This document shows, in pieces, positions 2,310 through 62,527 of a stretch of 64,000 nucleotides of DNA (position 1 is the first letter of the stretch; each line of letters begins with the position of its first letter). The translations under genes were made by a program, and so were the position numbers. The notes beneath the pieces are model-generated. The model had not been told where the DNA came from. It worked only from the letters and a program-made list of their open reading frames with translations, and made no database searches. This DNA is from Candidatus Poribacteria bacterium (GTDB lineage Bacteria > Poribacteria > WGA-4E > WGA-3G): assembly GCA_963663765.2 (NCBI GenBank), contig CAXXUA010000007.1, positions 32,001 through 96,000 of the forward strand, given 5' to 3'.

Positions 2310-2348
2310 GTGATGTCTCCGCATATGGATGTCTTGTTTCGGTTCATT

Positions 2349-2477
2349 TTATACGGTAATAGGTGAGGTGTCAATGGTATTATTGATATCGTTTGTTGGG
2401 TTCGCGAAAATTAGATTTTGCCTATCTCTGATGGTTAAAGTTGAAAAACATCGATCGGCAAATAACCTCAATCTCAT
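2349..2477 (-). pseudogene. Truncated DUF5615 (PIN-like toxin) remnant
   Basis: TAATG overlap with the DUF433 stop. My translation starts MRLRLFADRCFS, like DUF5615 N-termini, then runs into unrelated sequence and stops after 42 codons. Confidence 0.5.
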
Positions 2478-2701
2478 TAAGCGACTTCCTCAAATTCTGC
2501 TAACTCACGAGCATAATCCAGACAAGCATGAATGTGCATTACTTTTAGGTCAGGAAATTCTGCAATAATTTCATGTGCTGTATATCCTGCTGCCAAGTAT
2601 CCAAGTAAGAGACTAACTGGAATCTGCGTGCCTTTTATCCGCGGTTTTCCCCGTAATATCTCTAATGTGCTAATAATATGATCTCTCCAATTAATTGGCA
2701 T
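2477..2701 (-). CDS. DUF433 family antitoxin
   Basis: GKPRIKGTQIPV...EIIAEFPDL...IHACLDYA signature. Confidence 0.9.
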   Translation of the reverse strand: MPINWRDHIISTLEILRGKPRIKGTQIPVSLLLGYLAAGYTAHEIIAEFPDLKVMHIHACLDYARELAEFEEVA

Positions 2702-2794
2702 GTGATTTTTTCCTATTCTGTTGTGAAGTTACCGTGTTTTAGAGCATTCGGAGTTTCGCATACAAGAACCAAATCTATGTTTTATCAAAGCCTG

Positions 2795-3037
2795 TTAACG
2801 TTCTCGCTTAGCATAGCCTGGTTGATAGTCGTTGATGAATCTTGTTAATCCTTCTCCTTCTTTCGCCAATTCTTTCATCTCCTCAACGTCATCCTTACCT
2901 GCACTCTCATAAGTATACAGATAGATTCTACCGCTCGTAAACTGGATTCTGATAAATTTAGCTCCCGCTTCATAAGCAGCGATTCCCGAATTTCCATGAA
3001 GATTACCATATCGTTTCATGCGTTTTTTCTTTTGCAT
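2795..3037 (-). CDS. Small conserved hypothetical protein (KTSC-like)
   Basis: Strong AGGAGG SD; NSGIAAYE..I.IQF..G..YLY...G pattern. Confidence 0.65.
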   Translation of the reverse strand: MQKKKRMKRYGNLHGNSGIAAYEAGAKFIRIQFTSGRIYLYTYESAGKDDVEEMKELAKEGEGLTRFINDYQPGYAKRER

Positions 3038-3118
3038 GGGTTTCCTCCTATGTGAGAACTATAGTTTCGTCTATTATAGCACATTCGAAACTTTTTGTTA
3101 GATGAAATTACTCATTTT

Positions 3119-3399
3119 TAGGGTTATTTAGTTTTAAGAGTATTCTGTTATTGAGATTTACTGAAAGTTAATACCCCAGGCCGGTAGGTGCGGTTAGAAA
3201 CCGCACCGAATCCTAATAGGGAAAGTTGCCATGAAGGTTTTTGATCCAAATTCAGCAGAATACGCCAAATCAACGGTATGAATGTTATATAGCATTCCCC
3301 GTTTGGTATTCTGCATTGGTTAGAAACCGCAACTACCAGCATGGAATATATAGCATGTGTTAAAAATTCGCAAGAAATACCTGAAACTAAATAACCCTG
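3119..3399. mobile_element. MITE family A (TIR YAGGGTTATTTAGTTT)
   Basis: TIRs at 3119-3134 and 3384-3399; 9-bp direct repeat ACTCATTTT at 3110-3118 and 3400-3408; internal REPs and a hairpin mini-element. Confidence 0.85.
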
Positions 3400-3412
3400 A
3401 CTCATTTTGGGT

Positions 3413-5191: not shown

Positions 5192-5411
5192 ATTGCGAGT
5201 TTCCAGCGCGCTTACAAAGCACGCCTACCGTTGCGCATGAACCAATATTGCGAGTTTCCAGCGCGCTTACAAAGCACGTCTACCATTTGCACGTGAACCA
5301 ATATTGCGAGTTTCCAGCGCGCTTACAAAGCACGTCTACCATTTGCACGTGAACCAATATTGCGAGTTTCCAGCGCGCTTACAAAGCACGTCTACCATTT
5401 GCACGTGAACC
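5192..5411. repeat. Tandem array of four 55-56 bp units, REP-derived
   Basis: Units start at 5192, 5247, 5303 and 5359. Units 2-4 are identical; unit 1 differs slightly. No unique spacers. Confidence 0.95.
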
Positions 5412-5473: not shown

Positions 5474-8053
5474 TTAAGATCGTCTCATATCAATGCGGCG
5501 GAGGGCGATGTCTATGAGTAATAGGATTAGGGCTGCGATGAGGAAAGGTCGCCACAGATGTATCCGCAGTGTTACTGGGTTTTCAGGTGTGCGAAATACA
5601 TCTTCAGCGGAAATGTTGAATTTCCCACCAGACACATTTGAGAGCTGCGTGAGAAGTGATTCGTTAGCATTGTGGACAAGATATTCGTCTTGATAGGATA
5701 CAACGGTTCCGGAGACTTGGGTATTGACGATTTCACTCCCTTGTTTTTGTACGATGTTTAAGAAATAGGGACCGACATCTTGTGTTGGAAATTCAAGTTC
5801 ATATTTTCCGGGAGAAGTTTGTGAGATTGCGAGCTGTTTCTTTTTGAGATCAGGACCAATTAGGGAAATATCACTGTCTAACTCGTTCAGAAATTCACCG
5901 TCTTCACTCAATGCGTCAATGGTGAGATGTGCAATTCCCTTATCTTTTGTGATTTGTGCTTGAAAATTACTGAGTGTTGTTTTTCGCATTGTATCACGCA
6001 CGAGTTGTGTCCAAAATTTGCCATAACCCGGCCACTCTAACCAATCAGAAGCCCACCGTGCTTTTGCATCTGAAGTAAAAGCTACAGATTTGCCTAAACC
6101 GTATTGCCAGCTTGCAAGAACAGGATCGCCTCTGTCAGAGACGAGGAAAATCTCTGCAGTGGGTCTTGGTTGCGTAGCCACATATCCGAGTAGGAAGGGG
6201 GCAAGTTCCAAATCTATCCCGTTTAGAACTTGTGTCGGTTTGATGCGTTGCGGTATGAATGGTGTATCAATGATTGCAGACTTAGAAGCAGTGACTGTTT
6301 CTTTTGCGAAAATCTGTGGTACATTGTATGGGTCTTGTGTGAAATAGTCGCGTCCACCACCCCACTTGGCAAGATTCCCCAATAGGTTCATATCTGCACC
6401 AGAACCGATACCGACGGTTGATATTGTGATGCGTTCAGAATGCATTGAATTCGCGATTCCGTACCAGTCTCCACCTTGCGAATGACCATCACTCAGAACG
6501 ATGACGTGTTTAAGTTTCGCAGTTGTTTCGGTAAGTGCATAGTATGCTTGCTGCAATGCAGGATATAGGTTTGTTCCACCACCTGCAGTAATAGAACCGA
6601 CCTGATTTGAGATGAATTGCTTATCGGATGCATCGTGCATTTCAGTGATCCAGAATGGAGATCCGTCAAATGCGATGACACCGATTTTGTCGCGTGGACC
6701 GAGAAGTTCAACAGTTGCGCGTGCTGCTTCTTTTGCTAATTCTATCTTGATCCCACCCATACTGCCTGATTTATCTATCACTAACAGCATGGCTAATGAA
6801 GGTGTTTCTTTTTTCTTTTCGGTATCGGTGCGGACAGGTAGTACCTCTTCAATTGGGGTTTTATAGTATCCACCCAATCCAAAACTGTTTTCACTTCCGA
6901 GCATCATATATCCACCGCCGAGGTCTTGGACATAAGTGCGTATGAGTTCCATCTGTTTCTCACTGAGACGGTTGGCAGGAACATCACTGAAGATGATGAG
7001 TTCGTAGTTTTGGAGATCTGCTAATTCATTAGGGACACCTATGCCGTTACGGACATCCACACGAATCTTTGCTTCCTCAAGTACGCGCATAAGGTATCTG
7101 GTCTGAGACTCGTTTTCGTCAATTAGCAGCACTTTTGGTTTTCCAGAGACAGAAACTATTCCAAGAGCTTTGTTATTGTCGTAGCGTGTATCTTCTGTTG
7201 TTCTGCAAGTTACATCATAGGTCAACGTTCCGCTTTCCATAGATGTTTCCATGAAAACAATGCGATTCTCACCTTCAACGAGTCGAACCTCTTTCTTCGC
7301 AGCTTCAAATTTATTCTTGTATAGTTTGACTTCTGCTATATCCTCGTGATTGCTGTGGATAATTACTTCTAAATTGAAGGGTGCACCTTGTTTGACTTGT
7401 GCAGGAGCGTCAATTCGTTGTACCATGACTTCAGGTGAGTCGCTGGGATAGATAGGTACTGTGTCAATCTGTATGTCAAAGTCCTTTCCCCGTAGCCCTG
7501 TATGAATAGCATCACCTTGGGTTTCAATTCCGTCTGTGATTAGGACAATTCTTTTGTTTGCATTTGCTGGAAAAACACTCCATGCCGTTTCAATTGCTTG
7601 TGCAATATTTGTCGTGTCGCCGACATCCTCATCTTTCTCTAACCAAGTTTTCTTTATGTCTGCGAAATCAATTTTGGCTTCAGATTGTTGTTGATCTTGA
7701 GTATCTGGGGAATTTAGAATCTCTGCATTTTCAGTAAATGCTATAACACCAATTTGCTGATTCCCACTCTGGGATTTGAGTGCTTCATCAACAAATTCCG
7801 TTGATTTTTTCAATCCTTCTTCAGAGATACTGTCAGAAATATCTGTCAAAAACATCACAGCAAGTTTGTTATCCGTCTTTAGGTACTGGAAGTCTACCAC
7901 ACTTAGGATAAGTAGAAGTACTATAATGATTCTGACACATAAACTAACAATTCTCTGCGTCAGTGACAAGTCTACGAGACTGCGACGAAAGCCATAGTAA
8001 AGGACTGGTAATAAAACCAGCAGCAATAGTAAAAATGGGCGTGTTATTTCCAT
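5474..8053 (-). CDS. Membrane VWA protein with glutamine amidotransferase-like domain
   Basis: Two MIDAS-type motifs (DISDS, DKSGSM), GGGYMMLG GATase-like segment, WQYGLGKSVAFTSD, N- and C-terminal TM segments. Confidence 0.85.
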   Translation of the reverse strand: MEITRPFLLLLLVLLPVLYYGFRRSLVDLSLTQRIVSLCVRIIIVLLLILSVVDFQYLKTDNKLAVMFLTDISDSISEEGLKKSTEFVDEALKSQSGNQQIGVIAFTENAEILNSPDTQDQQQSEAKIDFADIKKTWLEKDEDVGDTTNIAQAIETAWSVFPANANKRIVLITDGIETQGDAIHTGLRGKDFDIQIDTVPIYPSDSPEVMVQRIDAPAQVKQGAPFNLEVIIHSNHEDIAEVKLYKNKFEAAKKEVRLVEGENRIVFMETSMESGTLTYDVTCRTTEDTRYDNNKALGIVSVSGKPKVLLIDENESQTRYLMRVLEEAKIRVDVRNGIGVPNELADLQNYELIIFSDVPANRLSEKQMELIRTYVQDLGGGYMMLGSENSFGLGGYYKTPIEEVLPVRTDTEKKKETPSLAMLLVIDKSGSMGGIKIELAKEAARATVELLGPRDKIGVIAFDGSPFWITEMHDASDKQFISNQVGSITAGGGTNLYPALQQAYYALTETTAKLKHVIVLSDGHSQGGDWYGIANSMHSERITISTVGIGSGADMNLLGNLAKWGGGRDYFTQDPYNVPQIFAKETVTASKSAIIDTPFIPQRIKPTQVLNGIDLELAPFLLGYVATQPRPTAEIFLVSDRGDPVLASWQYGLGKSVAFTSDAKARWASDWLEWPGYGKFWTQLVRDTMRKTTLSNFQAQITKDKGIAHLTIDALSEDGEFLNELDSDISLIGPDLKKKQLAISQTSPGKYELEFPTQDVGPYFLNIVQKQGSEIVNTQVSGTVVSYQDEYLVHNANESLLTQLSNVSGGKFNISAEDVFRTPENPVTLRIHLWRPFLIAALILLLIDIALRRIDMRRS

Positions 8054-17684: not shown

Positions 17685-18156
17685 GGGTGTGTAAAGTTTT
17701 TGCACAAACATCCCACTCTCCATTGTAGGGCGAAATCAACGGTATGAATGCCATTTAGGCATTCCCCGGGTCTCTGTGCCCCCCCGCAACTGATTAAATG
17801 AGAGATTGCGGACACAGAGTCCTAATGAGTTTTGACGTTCAAGTTGTGTATTCGTAGGTGCGCGGTTTCCACACATGATCTACGCAAACTCAAAAACCAA
17901 AGGGGTTGGGGAACCCAAACCCTACGAATTCAACTACCAATTTTGATTGTCAAACTTCATTAGGTGTCAATATAAAGAAATATTGTTAATATTAACCATA
18001 TTCTTCAGTCCCGTAGGGACGATTTGTTTATCCTTCTATGTCGTTCCTACAGAACTAAAGAGAGAGGATGTGATAACGTCTTTCTATAAACATTGCGTCC
18101 CTACGGGACTAAAGAGAACAAAAGCTAGTACCTCTGTGCAAAAACTTTGCACACCC
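17685..18156. mobile_element. MITE family B (IS256-like ends), REP-packed
   Basis: 22-bp TIR GGGTGTGTAAAGTTTTTGCACA with 1 mismatch; 9-bp TSD TATTTTACA at 17676-17684 and 18157-18165; no transposase. Confidence 0.88.
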
Positions 18157-50839: not shown

Positions 50840-51026
50840 CAGGGTTGTTTTATGCATATTACACGATACCTGAGAAAATCGCGACCGGCAAAACAAGAAA
50901 TCCAACGGTATGAATGCGCGTATGGCATTCCCCGGGTATGAATGCCTTTTGGCATTCCCCGGTTCGTTACTACCGCGGGATTTCATTTTTTAGAAATCCG
51001 AACATTAGGCAAACTGAATAACCCTA
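50840..51026. mobile_element. MITE family A copy, reverse orientation, degenerate
   Basis: CAGGGTTGTTT...AAACTGAATAACCCTA ends; imperfect TSD CCAACTCCT/CCAATTCCC; carries a double mini-element. Confidence 0.65.
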
Positions 51027-58682: not shown

Positions 58683-59786
58683 TTAGTTGGAATTTCGTTT
58701 CCATTGTGCATATCGTTGTAGTGTTCGGATATCAATTTCTAACGATTTTGCAGCTTCACGTAATGATGTATGATTATCTATACGCAAAGTTGCAACTTCA
58801 GAAAGAATTTGGTTCTGATTCATATTTTGAATATCTATAGATTCACTATGCACATCCGATTGATTATCTATCGAATTCCTATCGCTATACCAGGGTTGTG
58901 GTAATTGTGTTGAGAATTCATGCGTGATGATATGTTGCATTTCTGGATGAAGTGCATCCCATATTGCATGTTGTGTTTCGTTAGAGAGTTCACCCCATAG
59001 CGTTATTAGTGTTTGTAGGTAATCTGGATAGATATTTGGAAAATCCTTGAGTTCAAGTTTTTCTGCTGTTGTTAGTGCGATAGCTGTTTGTATTGTACTT
59101 CTCAGCTGCCGTATGTTACCTTTCCATGCCGCTTGTTTCAGACGTTTTAGTGCCTCTATAGTGATTCCAGACACATCTTTATCATATTCAGCACTAAATT
59201 CATTGATAAAAGCATCTATTAATGGAGAAATATCTTCTGTTCGTTCGCGGAGTGGTGGTAGATGAATCCTCATACCTTTCAGACGGTAGTATAGGTCTTC
59301 TCTAAAGTGTTTTTCAGCGACGTCCTTTTCAATGTCTCTGTTCGTTGCGGTGAGTATATGAACATCTACAGTTAATATTTGATTTCCCCCAAGTCTGGTG
59401 AATTTTGATGTGTCTAAGACGCGTAGTAGCATTTTCTGTGCATCCATTGACATTTCAGGCACTTCATCTAAAAAGAGAATACCTCCATTTGCGAGTTCAA
59501 ATGCCCCTTGTCTTTGTCGTATTGCACTTGTAAATGCGCCAGCTTCATGACCGAATAATTCACTTTGTAGGAGTTCTGTTGAATATCTTCCGCAATTGAT
59601 TGCTACAAAAGGTTTTTCCTTCCGCTGACTATTTTCATAAATATACTTTGCAATTCCTTCTTTACCTACTCCTGTATCACCTGTAATTAAGAATGGAATA
59701 TTTGAATTTACAACCTGTTTTATTTTCGTATATATCATTTGCATCTGTTTAGATGGCAATTCGATGTAAGTTGGTTGCATGTTCAT
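58683..59786 (-). CDS. Sigma-54-dependent activator (bEBP) lacking an N-terminal sensor domain
   Basis: GDTGVGKE, SELFGHEAGAFTSA, LFLDEV, FREDLYYRL, WKGNIRQL, C-terminal HTH (AAKSLEIDIRTL). Confidence 0.9.
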   Translation of the reverse strand: MNMQPTYIELPSKQMQMIYTKIKQVVNSNIPFLITGDTGVGKEGIAKYIYENSQRKEKPFVAINCGRYSTELLQSELFGHEAGAFTSAIRQRQGAFELANGGILFLDEVPEMSMDAQKMLLRVLDTSKFTRLGGNQILTVDVHILTATNRDIEKDVAEKHFREDLYYRLKGMRIHLPPLRERTEDISPLIDAFINEFSAEYDKDVSGITIEALKRLKQAAWKGNIRQLRSTIQTAIALTTAEKLELKDFPNIYPDYLQTLITLWGELSNETQHAIWDALHPEMQHIITHEFSTQLPQPWYSDRNSIDNQSDVHSESIDIQNMNQNQILSEVATLRIDNHTSLREAAKSLEIDIRTLQRYAQWKRNSN

Positions 59787-60334: not shown

Positions 60335-61090
60335 AATAATGTTCCTGTCAATAACTAAAATATAAAACTCAAAAGTATAAAATCTTGGATGTTGATTTTT
60401 ACTACATCTACAATAAAAAATACTCATTTTGAGTTAACATAATAACATAAAATAGGTATGTGCGTAATTGCTTAGTAATGCATCCCAGTGAGTAGATTGC
60501 TCCAAGCGATGTTTTATTAGCAGAAGTTGGTTTATAGTCGCGCAATTCAAAACCAAAACAAATTTTAAATATGTTTCAAGACTTACGTAGTTTTCTTGAT
60601 TTAATCAAGAATTATGATGAAAATGATGTAATTATCAGCAATCTTATAGGTTTCCAGCGCGCTTACAAAGCGGCAAATCAAGAAATCAACGGCAAGAATG
60701 CCATTTAGGCATTCACCGCCTAACGTTTTTGCGTAAGTCCTGATGTTTATAGTGTTAGTATCACTGATGTTTGTGTTTAACACAATAAGGTGTCTAATGC
60801 TTACATGTATATTAAAATAGATATAACTTATGCGCACTTCTATGAAAATAAAATAGGAAAAAGATAAGATGAATAAATAGATATTAGGCACTATGTATGT
60901 GCCATTTGGTTGTAAGTGCGCTTGTCCCTCTCCCCTTAAGGGCGTGCTTACAACAGATCGCGATTTGGGTAGGCGCGCTAACCAAATCGCGATTAAAAGG
61001 TAGTGGTCTTCGGATCACTACCTTAGTTTTTTATAATAGCTTGAGTTTCTACCTACAAGCTTTTAAGCAGATAGTTACTGGTCATTACTA

Positions 61091-61967
61091 GAGCGTATCT
61101 CATAAATATTTTAGTGACATACGTATGCAAGCAAGAAGTACAAAACCTAAATAATTTTCAGCGTAGTATTCCCAACGAACAACTAAACGCCGATAATCCT
61201 CTAACCAACTGAAAAATCTTTCTACTTTGAAACGACGCTTATACCGTCGTAAACGCCGACCATCCTGTGTAGCCTGTTTTTTACGATTCTTTTTATGAGG
61301 TGCTACCATTTCAATACCACGTTCCCTCAAAGAAGCATCTAAAGGATCAGAGTCATAAGCTTTGTCCCCAATCAACACTGCGGGGTTTTCGGATGTCCAA
61401 CACGCATCCAATGCCGGTTCAACCAAGCGCACTTCATGACAAGAAGCCTTTGTAATCAGAACACTCACAGGTCTACCAGACTTTTCTGTAATCGCTACCA
61501 GTTTTGTCCCTTTGCCGCACTTCGTTGGACCAACACAAATGCCTCCTTTCTTGGCAGGAACGAATTTCGCATCAATACAACACTCACTCATATTTATTTT
61601 TTTTCGTTTTTCAAGCATTTCTGTGAGTACCATTTGAACTTTTTCAAGCGTTCCATCCGATGACCATTGCTGAAAACGACGATGACAGGTTTGATAGGGT
61701 GGATACTTTTCTGGTAAATCCCGCCAGGGAGCTCCTGTTCGCAACACCCACAGTATCCCATCTAACACTTCTCTATTACCACGCCAAGGTCTCCCCGGTT
61801 TATCCGATGGTGGTTCTGGCATTAGGGGTTCAATAATTTCCCATTCCTTATCACTAAGTTCCATTCAAATCATCCCCTTACTTATAGTAGAAATAGATAT
61901 AGTTTAGCAGAGATGATGAGAAATTAAAAGAAAAAATCAAACCATTTAATATTTATGAGATACGCTC
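61091..61967 (-). mobile_element. IS5 family (IS427-like) insertion sequence
   Basis: TIR GAGCGTATCTCATAAATATT at both ends, flanked by TA; encodes a transposase. Confidence 0.93.
61100..61864 (-). CDS. IS5 family transposase
   Basis: LSDKEW, LRTGAPWRDLP, CIDA, GDKAYD, R..VERFFSWL..YRRL. Confidence 0.95.
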   Translation of the reverse strand: MELSDKEWEIIEPLMPEPPSDKPGRPWRGNREVLDGILWVLRTGAPWRDLPEKYPPYQTCHRRFQQWSSDGTLEKVQMVLTEMLEKRKKINMSECCIDAKFVPAKKGGICVGPTKCGKGTKLVAITEKSGRPVSVLITKASCHEVRLVEPALDACWTSENPAVLIGDKAYDSDPLDASLRERGIEMVAPHKKNRKKQATQDGRRLRRYKRRFKVERFFSWLEDYRRLVVRWEYYAENYLGFVLLACIRMSLKYL

Positions 61968-62129
61968 TAATATAACAACGATTTTCCATCTATTTTGATG
62001 ATATTTATTCTAAATCAGGGTTAGAAACCCTTCCTACAAGAGTATTCCGATGTAGGTAGTAACTTGACGACTTGTGCCAGTTAACCCATTGTTTTCAAAG
62101 TTTTTACATATATTAGGTTTATAATGCGC

Positions 62130-62342
62130 ACATATCGTCCCTACCAAATCAACGCCAAATGCGCCAAATCAACGGTATGAATGCCATTAAGGCATTCCCC
62201 GTATGGCATTTGTCGGGACTAAAGAGGATGTACTATGACGTTTTTCTATAAACATATCGTCCCTACCAAATCAACGCCAAATGCGCCAAATCAACGGTAT
62301 GAATGCCATTAAGGCATTCCCCGTATGGCATTTGGCGGGACT
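62130..62342. repeat. Two copies (period 122 bp) of a REP unit, each carrying nested mini-elements
   Basis: 91-bp units at 62130-62220 and 62252-62342 with 1 mismatch; empty homologue at 18097-18116. Confidence 0.9.
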
Positions 62343-62527
62343 GAAGATCGTTTCAAACTATGAAGGACACCTGCAAAACGTCATGCTTATGTGAAACAAT
62401 GATTAACATATAGTTATTTAGCACAACTCGTTAACTTGGGTTATAATAAAATCATTATATTTTGAAATATCAAGATAATAATGTCTATAGAACTATGGTT
62501 TAAATGTTGTGAATCTATATAGAGATG

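Follow-up and report, generated by a model that had tools for sequence, protein, structure and literature searches.

The nearest known analogue of X, the family of small hairpin repeats considered here, appears to be the small dispersed repeats (SDRs) of Nostoc, a likeness of description only, with the REP/REPIN–RAYT systems next. SDR4, SDR5 and SDR6 of Nostoc punctiforme and its relatives, which are heterocystous cyanobacteria (Nostocaceae), are described, in papers that cite Elhai et al. 2008, as about 20 bp long (21 nt in SDR5), both dispersed and in tandem, and presumably mobile. SDR5 is reported to lie precisely within HIP1, a short GC-rich palindrome, between its third and fourth nucleotides. 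X was recognised in a stretch of 64,000 nucleotides (hereafter the window; C7:32001-96000) of G000, a metagenome-assembled genome (MAG) of Candidatus Poribacteria that comprises 6.35 Mb in 15 contigs and is the genome surveyed here unless another is named. Like the Nostoc repeats, X is very small and non-coding, is both dispersed and tandem, and is inserted precisely in other sequence. Unlike them, it is found in Poribacteria, has units of 34-36 nt with a repeated 8-nt leader, and has a bare CpG as its target, while HIP1 is not enriched (29 + 29 occurrences in G000, which is chance level). Unit sizes of the Nostoc SDRs reportedly span 21-27 nt. A cyanobacterial affiliation of X, or direct identity with the Nostoc SDRs, was considered and is rejected on the chance-level HIP1 count, together with the exact 20-mer AAATCAACGGTATGAATGCC, for which at least 91 stretches were found in a collection of species-representative genomes, all of those listed being in Candidatus Poribacteria MAGs (one titled 'uncultured bacterium'). 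A sigma-54 activator gene in the window had given an early hint against a cyanobacterium.

REP and REPIN sequences carry a GTAG or CGTC tag at one palindrome end (Di Nocera 2013, PMC3733652, in part), and excerpts of this literature (see also Nunvar 2010; Bertels & Rainey 2011) record repetitive extragenic palindromes (REPs) inside larger palindromes in three species. X resembles these repeats in being a short, mostly extragenic hairpin with hundreds of copies and lineage-restricted persistence. It differs in that its three types, X1, X2 and X3, are without a GTAG or CGTC tag, the tag belonging instead to the hosts of X (a GTAGG foot). Also unlike REPs and REPINs, X does not flank the RAYT of G000, occurs in some genomes that have no RAYT, and lives inside REPs.

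Elements of the IS200/IS605 family and their miniature derivatives combine hairpin-bearing subterminal ends with a very short target, no target duplication and a strict orientation, the active strand being biased to the lagging-strand template. The miniatures are matched by X in its orientation specificity, its lack of target duplication and its short target (201 of 299 copies are exact at CpG). In contrast to such derivatives, X is a single hairpin of 36 nt that does not co-occur with TnpA and, over the contigs compared, shows no consistent lagging-strand bias. Background on single-strand transposition in this family is given in PMC6006769 (in part). Hairpins of REPs, or palindromic units (PUs), also serve as targets of insertion sequences (ISs; see Tobes & Pareja 2006), and IS1397 goes into palindromic units. 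Palindromic repeats are likewise apparently favoured landing sites of X, but those ISs are full-length and encode a transposase, while X encodes nothing and has about one twenty-fifth of their length.

BOX elements are modular mosaic repeats. The bacterial interspersed mosaic elements (BIMEs) of Escherichia coli are of the same kind (PMC2817692, in part). Like both, X combines a few kinds of module, each repeated a variable number of times. The modules of BIMEs, however, lie side by side, and nesting in a loop at a fixed dinucleotide is not mentioned in the excerpt cited. Full-text searching found no literature on such repeats in Poribacteria; the papers on Poribacteria that it returned apparently concern CRISPR or general sponge-microbiome genomics, to judge from titles and abstracts. 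Few apparently mobile DNA units as small as X are known, and elements of this size test the lower size limit of mobile DNA.

Anatomy and nesting of X

A sequence-only reading of the window had proposed a hairpin mini-element that inserts into other hairpins, with three nested levels at 62.1-62.3 kb. Both 62137-62219 and 62259-62341 show these levels as proposed, and the host hairpin without an insertion, GTCCCTAC|GGGAC, is present at 18097 (vertical bars mark junctions throughout). The features concerned are as follows.

62137-62144, +: level 0, left arm and loop of the host B hairpin, GTCCCTAC; the element starts after the final C
62145-62214, +: level 1, X2, consisting of the leader CAAATCAAC and the hairpin GCCAAATGC-GCGTATG-GCATTTGTC; 34 nt alone, 70 nt including the nested X1
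62165-62200, +: level 2, X1 of 36 nt, consisting of the leader CAAATCAAC and GG-TAT-GAATGCC-ATTAA-GGCATTC-CC-CC
62215-62219, +: level 0, right arm of host B, GGGAC
62259-62341, +: second nested set, 122 bp downstream, with host B at 62259-62266 and 62337-62341, X2 at 62267-62336 and X1 at 62287-62322
18097-18109, +: empty host B site, GTCCCTAC|GGGAC; another lies at 18008-18020, minus strand
62067-62434, +: composite repeat of 368 bp with both nested sets inside; it recurs at G000:C5:867886-868253 (99%) and C6:315964-316333 (98%)

The X1 unit at 62165-62200 interrupts a CpG in the loop of X2, GCGC|GTATGG, a site that, with identical flanks, is found filled 47 times and empty 65 times. The X2 right arm at the two 62-kb sets reads GCATTTG(T/G)C, and a 96-nt stretch folded as DNA is predicted to form nested helices (-14.9 kcal/mol, z = -3.2). 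Because they lie 122 bp apart in one 368-bp composite that is found three times, the two 62-kb copies are not independent. A census of host B across the genome (from TCGTCCCTAC to GGGACTRAAGA) yielded 596 empty sites, 66 with X2 (34-35 nt), 43 with the 70-nt combination of X2 and X1, and about 15 in which the nested array is longer (77-106 nt). Every level is populated, and Russian-doll nesting is a population-level fact.

The X family is defined by its leader, together with the loop GCGT(A/T)TG, which is common to X2, X3 and one X1 variant, and its stems vary freely. The leader, AAATCAAG/C, occurs in one to six copies, of which the final one ends in C; after it comes at least one short hairpin. 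In X1, one to six copies of the 8-nt leader precede one to five copies of a 27-nt hairpin with the stem GAATGCC/GGCATTC. X3 (n = 12) has the same leader as X1 and X2, the stem GTCAGAAGC and the loop GCGTTTG, and is found in another host hairpin. The ends of X, CAAATC.. and ..TTCCCC, are not inverted repeats. Thus, X is distinguished from a classical miniature inverted-repeat transposable element (MITE) by having no terminal inverted repeats, and target duplication was not seen at the 51 exact flank pairs described below.

The genome-wide scan that had been proposed from the window was carried out with a permissive grammar and detected 469 X1 arrays, 224 on the plus strand and 245 on the minus strand; the exact 10-mer AAATCAACGG alone has 528 copies in 6.35 Mb. 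Arrays with one to six leader units number 274, 151, 29, 12, 2 and 1, respectively, and those with one to five hairpin units 371, 87, 9, 1 and 1. Only 12 of 464 arrays lie within long open reading frame (ORF) proxies. The inner stem is perfectly complementary in 478 of 617 simple hairpin units, and there are compensatory stem subfamilies, each with its own loops (GCC/GGC, 421 units; GCT/AGC, 30; ACC/GGT, 25). Among 57 distinct multi-unit arrays, neighbouring units are unlike in 47 of 65 pairs (identity 28%, vs 15% expected at random), and the arrays are therefore not plain products of slippage. In some X1 units across the genome, a CATGGAGCATGC..GCATGCTTC hairpin takes the place of the loop. 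There are also head-to-head pairs of X1 around a common central hairpin (GGTATGAATCATGGCGAATGC..GCATTCGCCATGATTCATACC) in longer palindromes, for example at C4:1165454-1165560.

All six copies reported for the window exist, at coordinates that needed shifting by only 1-2 nt, and all are on the plus strand. Those outside the 62-kb sets, with the repeats that hold or resemble their hosts, are listed here.

3266-3300, +: X1 of 35 nt with a variant stem (GTT/AGC), at the CpG in the loop of the host E hairpin GCAGAATACGC|GTTTGGTATTCTGC
5211-5400, +: four tandem host A units with a 56-bp period and without X, one of which fits the empty consensus AAGCAC|GCCTAC
17685-18156: MITE-like repeat of 470 bp whose ends are inverted, ..GTGTAAAGTTTTTGCACA / TGTGCAAAAACTTTGCACAC..; it recurs at G000:C5:316188-316675 (94%)
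17733-17767, +: X1 without its leading C, after GTAGGGCG, within the MITE-like repeat
50889-50960, +: X array with two leaders (one degenerate) and two hairpins, between GCGACCGG and GGTTCG
60674-60717, +: degenerate X1 with two leader units, GGCAAGAAT..CATTCACC, within a host A repeat

Empty forms of two of these sites occur elsewhere in the genome, namely CAGAATACGC|GTATGGTATTCT for host E (n = 7) and GTAGGGCGGGGTCTC for the site at 17733 (n = 6). The MITE-like repeat contains, besides X1, a long internal hairpin and the two empty host B sites, and the two hairpins of the 50889-50960 array have unlike loops, GCGCGTATGGC and GCCTTTTGGC. It had been suggested that removal of the unit rebuilds a host hairpin at five sites; four of the five hold, the exception being 60657, where the hairpin drawn is not the host and X lies instead in a degenerate repeat of the very abundant host A type (CTTACAAAGC..GCGTAAG). 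With one mismatch or fewer, the 10-mer has 15 matches in the window against 6.1 expected, a number that none of 100 shuffles reached. A seventh exact match, at 7798 on the minus strand, has no hairpin and looks like a chance match.

Target sites and orientation

The general rule is that one CpG is split by the element, in a fixed orientation and without visible target duplication. An empty paralogue with the same 9-nt flanks was found for 329 of the 469 arrays. After 17 flank pairs (30 copies) in which the flank was another unit had been set aside, 105 pairs (299 copies) with empties were kept. In 51 of these pairs, representing 201 copies, the filled site minus an exact [C..C] stretch between the C and G of a CpG equals the empty site. 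Such precise targets include the X2 loop (GCGC|GTATGG), two sites in host A (GCAC|GCCTAC and GCGC|GCTTAC), ACGC|GTATGG, GGTC|GGGTAG and CTAC|GGGAC. At four sites, the ratios of one orientation to the other are 122 to 1, 206 to 0, 35 to 0 and 63 to 0. The earlier impression that units have CG on both sides is correct for the window but does not extend to the genome, where 351 of the 469 arrays have CC, and only 36 have CG, directly ahead of the leader. The anatomy, target dinucleotide, orientation rule and three-level census can all be read from sequence, and the mechanism is consequently testable with oligonucleotides.

Strand bias, which had also been proposed, is regional in contigs C6 and C4 of G000 but absent from the complete genome G033. 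On C6, three plus-strand and 30 minus-strand units lie in the first 190 kb and 51 plus-strand units and one minus-strand unit from 305 kb onward (runs test, z = -4.17). The same test gives z = -2.09 for C4 and is not significant for four further contigs. Comparison of strand with replichore in G033 revealed no pattern (41 runs vs 45.4 expected, z = -0.95). In G000, dnaA, at C5:1.28 Mb, lies away from any skew turning point. Cumulative GC skew declines steadily on both sides of this sole dnaA match (G000:C5:1282439-1282924), and skew is therefore no marker of the origin in G000. The strand of X has a weak link with GC skew (odds ratio 2, p = 1e-4), with contig C15 to the contrary, and none with the flanking genes (101 co-oriented and 98 anti-oriented copies after de-duplication). 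Empty host A and another REP have a regional strand bias like that of X, although weaker.

The gene content of the X-dense C6:300-380 kb of G000 (PolA, HSP20, sulfatases, about 11 WD40 proteins and DDE transposases) offers no candidate mobiliser. X is dense at C6:305-375 kb, and C6:337951-373825 holds a cluster of about 11 WD40 beta-propeller proteins (325-763 aa), between which lie two DDE transposases and intergenic DNA rich in X.

Taxonomic range of X and of Y1 genes

X1 is present in all but one of 39 genomes of this genus (38) and in 54 of 65 genomes of a second genus, but in none of seven genomes from four other genera of the family. The only match outside the family is in G082 (one of 20 genomes of genus g6), and the remainder of the phylum has none. 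The X1-positive genomes, with G000 included, come to 94 of 176. Copies per genome range from 0 to 374, G000 having the most, and loop variants are private to species. Since copy number and loop sequence differ by species, X could be usable as a source of strain markers. In the complete genome G044, about 32 of the 75 perfect X1 copies lie, in mixed orientation, in a 115-kb stretch (G044:C1:4351187-4465118), to which C6:305-375 kb of G000 is comparable. Intergenic DNA in uncultured sponge symbionts is full of X modules and of their hosts, and it is there that short-read assemblies break.

The hosts of X have a different distribution. Host A, the commonest host in G000, has an empty 16-mer, TACAAAGCACGCCTRC, that occurs in 949 copies there, vs 0-5 in each of 39 congeners and none in the two nearest relatives. 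Host A (GCGCGCTTACAAAGCACGCCT[AG]C..) also forms long tandem arrays with a period of 32 nt (elsewhere 40-56), one of which has 31 units (e.g., the array at G000:C2:50450-51425). These counts point to a very recent burst of host A in G000. Host A is almost private to this genome while X is genus-wide, and X is therefore older than host A and must have entered it recently, in this lineage. X is found in about 16 flank variants of host A (read off the listed classes), all of which are also found empty. In other species, 73 loci with 89 arrays have different hosts, such as GGGAATC|GGAGTTCCC, and G follows X in 84 of the 89 arrays. Within G000, the X1 unit occurs with the same ends in at least ten unrelated sequence contexts.

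The presumed mobiliser had been an HUH/Y1 enzyme of the RAYT or IS200-like kind, with none encoded in the window. The window, on contig C7, indeed has no Y1 gene, the six PF01797 matches of G000 being on contigs C3, C4, C5 and C10. One of them is a true RAYT (NF047646, 121 bits; cut-off 80), and four are TnpA genes of the IS200 type. The RAYT, a 225-aa ORF at G000:C4:621.4-622.1 kb, is part of a classical REPtron within C4:620161-623487. GTAGG-footed REPs of two alternating types, neither of which is X, bracket it, with at least eight copies upstream and at least 12 downstream. The prediction that RAYT or TnpA genes would be flanked by the X hairpin failed, as there is no X within 1.5 kb on either side of the RAYT or the four IS200-type TnpA genes.

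Co-occurrence across genomes tells against the same idea. RAYT exceeds the cut-off in 77 of 112 genomes of the family, including X-free genera and G003, which has a RAYT (83 bits) and no X units. Conversely, G044, G001 and G010 have no PF01797 match at E<=0.01, and carry 98, 70 and 72 X units, respectively. G044 is a single contig, and G001 has four contigs and is 97% complete. Perfect leader-plus-hairpin copies number 75 in G044 and 58 in G001, with loop variants that are rare or absent in G000. An HUH/Y1 mobiliser is thus not supported, given the different REPs around the RAYT, the failure of co-occurrence, and Y1-free genomes that are rich in X. The PF04986 profile (Y2/IS91 transposase) had no match, a result that carries no information because the control likewise had none. 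With Y1 enzymes set aside by co-occurrence, the mobiliser can be hunted by phyletic profiling, which makes X a cleaner system than REPs.

Weighing the routes of spread

Of the original proposal of a tiny element mobilised in trans, the part that stands is the discrete, insertable, non-coding module, given its presence or absence at CpG, its nesting, and hosts that differ by species; the HUH enzyme is not supported. On balance, we lean slightly towards X being such a module, mobilised in trans, integrating at C|G in one orientation, re-using the regenerated C|G and hitch-hiking on its hosts. A unit of 34-36 nt with C at both ends would be placed, always in the same orientation, between the C and G of a single CpG. 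Its targets would mostly be other GC-rich repeats, such as REP-like hairpins and MITEs, and would include the X2 loop, hence the Russian-doll nesting. The right junction would again be C|G after insertion, and more units could therefore be added, giving arrays of unlike units. Composite hosts bearing X might then multiply by themselves. Insertion would require an enzyme acting on single-stranded or extruded DNA, and this enzyme is probably not a Y1 HUH transposase.

Several observations weigh against this account. No mobilising gene was identified, and Y1 enzymes do not co-occur with X. No pair of sites that differ by X only, filled and empty, was found at an orthologous locus in G016 or G036 (about 87% identity). 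Instead, G016 is without the entire host and X of about 170 bp (~60570-60740), where the G036 alignment begins only at 60828, and 61034-62527 (IS and composite) is missing as one block from both. The X-dense C6:34-54 kb is not syntenic in either relative, which have paralogous gene matches only. In sequencing reads (Logan contigs from four runs in four studies), no locus-specific empty allele was found; these contigs break at repeats, and joints that skip X or its host have sides of 20-36 nt, which fit other copies. No RNA data set was listed among those that contain the sequence. Moreover, 47 X1 copies have identical flanks, and many X copies have, on this comparison, clearly spread inside composites. 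Junctions deviate by 1-3 nt in 54 of the 105 flank pairs (98 copies), and in two hosts GCCTAC replaces the host's own bases after X, which looks like recombination. The loop GAATGCGC|GTATGGCATTC (about 45 copies) has no insertions, vs 63 in the near-identical X2 loop, a contrast suggesting that a few events, once amplified, account for much of the census. Recognition of hairpins, as had been envisaged, received no support either. The junction lies in a predicted loop in 69 of 268 distinct hosts vs 417 of 1500 random intergenic CpGs, and pairing of at least 5 bp across the junction is found in 118 of 274 vs 536 of 1000 in the background. There is no enrichment, and the intergenic CpGs of G000 mostly sit in palindromic repeats in any case.

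Some of these points would be expected if X were immobile alone, a fixed part of MITEs, REP arrays and IS-associated repeats, its empty sites belonging to different subfamilies or having arisen by deletion. The indel is the entire composite at each of the two loci set against those of relatives; the 62-kb copies are in a 368-bp repeat (n = 3), and the 17.7-kb copy is in a MITE of 470 bp that recurs at 94% in another place; and a few flank classes dominate the census. Such an explanation is nevertheless improbable, as a unit with constant ends occurs in ten or more unrelated contexts here and in others in other species, X extends through the genus but its main host is confined to one genome, and about 16 flank variants of host A exist both with and without X. 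Spread without any dedicated enzyme is a stronger rival, albeit a rather unlikely one. At stalled hairpins, X would pass from one GC-rich hairpin repeat to another through a switch of replication template or through short-patch gene conversion, slippage would build the arrays of leaders and hairpins, and the CpG rule would be microhomology (a C at the start, a C at the end and a G after). This could account for donor flank at the junctions, as where GCCTAC follows X in a REP host (GAGATCG..CCTACA, two host bases lost) and where GCTTAC of host A site 1 has turned into GCCTAC. It would also fit the inexact flank pairs (54 of 105), the variable numbers of 8-nt and 27-nt units, the 36-nt and 82-nt periodic arrays of contig C6, and the persistence and diversification of X in genomes without a Y1 gene. 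It is harder to reconcile with 201 copies in 51 flank contexts that have identical element ends with 1 nt of possible homology per side, with the absolute orientation, and with array neighbours that are mostly unlike (47 of 65). The 36-nt sequence is, moreover, kept across two genera, implying sustained selection on the unit.

Movement of X by a resident RAYT or IS200/IS605 TnpA, via single-stranded hairpins, is very improbable. The RAYT and the four IS200-type TnpA genes of G000, the GTAGG-footed REP-like hairpins that make up all of the hosts, the fixed orientation without target duplication, and the coherent strand runs in C6 (z = -4.2) and C4 (z = -2.1) would all suit it. Against this stand the arrays of a different REP on both sides of the RAYT, the absence of X within 1.5 kb of TnpA genes, and the RAYTs of X-free genera and of G003. 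G044, G001 and G010 are rich in X with loop variants of their own and have no PF01797 match, and complete G033 has no replichore pattern. A Y1 enzyme of the past could conceivably have been the former mobiliser of X. A bolder form of the favoured account, which we advance only tentatively, is that X1-X3 are self-targeting replicators of about 35 nt that follow the C|G rule and are moved by a non-Y1 activity. The candidate mover would be an undescribed nuclease or strand-transferase, to which the 8-nt leader would serve as an iteron-like recognition sequence and the GCGT(A/T)TG loop as the nicking site or, alternatively, a hijacked activity of host replication or repair. If this is true, no bacterial mobile DNA with a known target rule would be smaller than X, and a new enzyme class would be there to be found as its mobiliser.

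The surroundings of the nested sets include a further mobile element. The 61865-62527 region is intergenic and is flanked by minus-strand ORFs for an IS4/5-type DDE transposase and a cation-efflux protein. The IS adjoins the composite and has at least six copies in G000 (three others at 98-100% and two at 85%), with copies at 80-92% in several congeners. An Rfam scan of the window returned no family at gathering score. Elsewhere in the window, the orthologous site of 2325-3405 (about 1.1 kb, including the X1 at 3266) has 100-160 bp instead in G016 and G036; this stretch also contains two small minus-strand ORF-like stretches. The remaining annotated features are given below.

61089-61969, -: IS4/IS5-type insertion sequence of 881 bp, with a 254-aa ORF at 61100-61864 (DUF4096 and DDE_Tnp_1)
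58683-59786: AAA+ activator with a sigma-54 interaction domain (PF00158, E = 2.8e-64)

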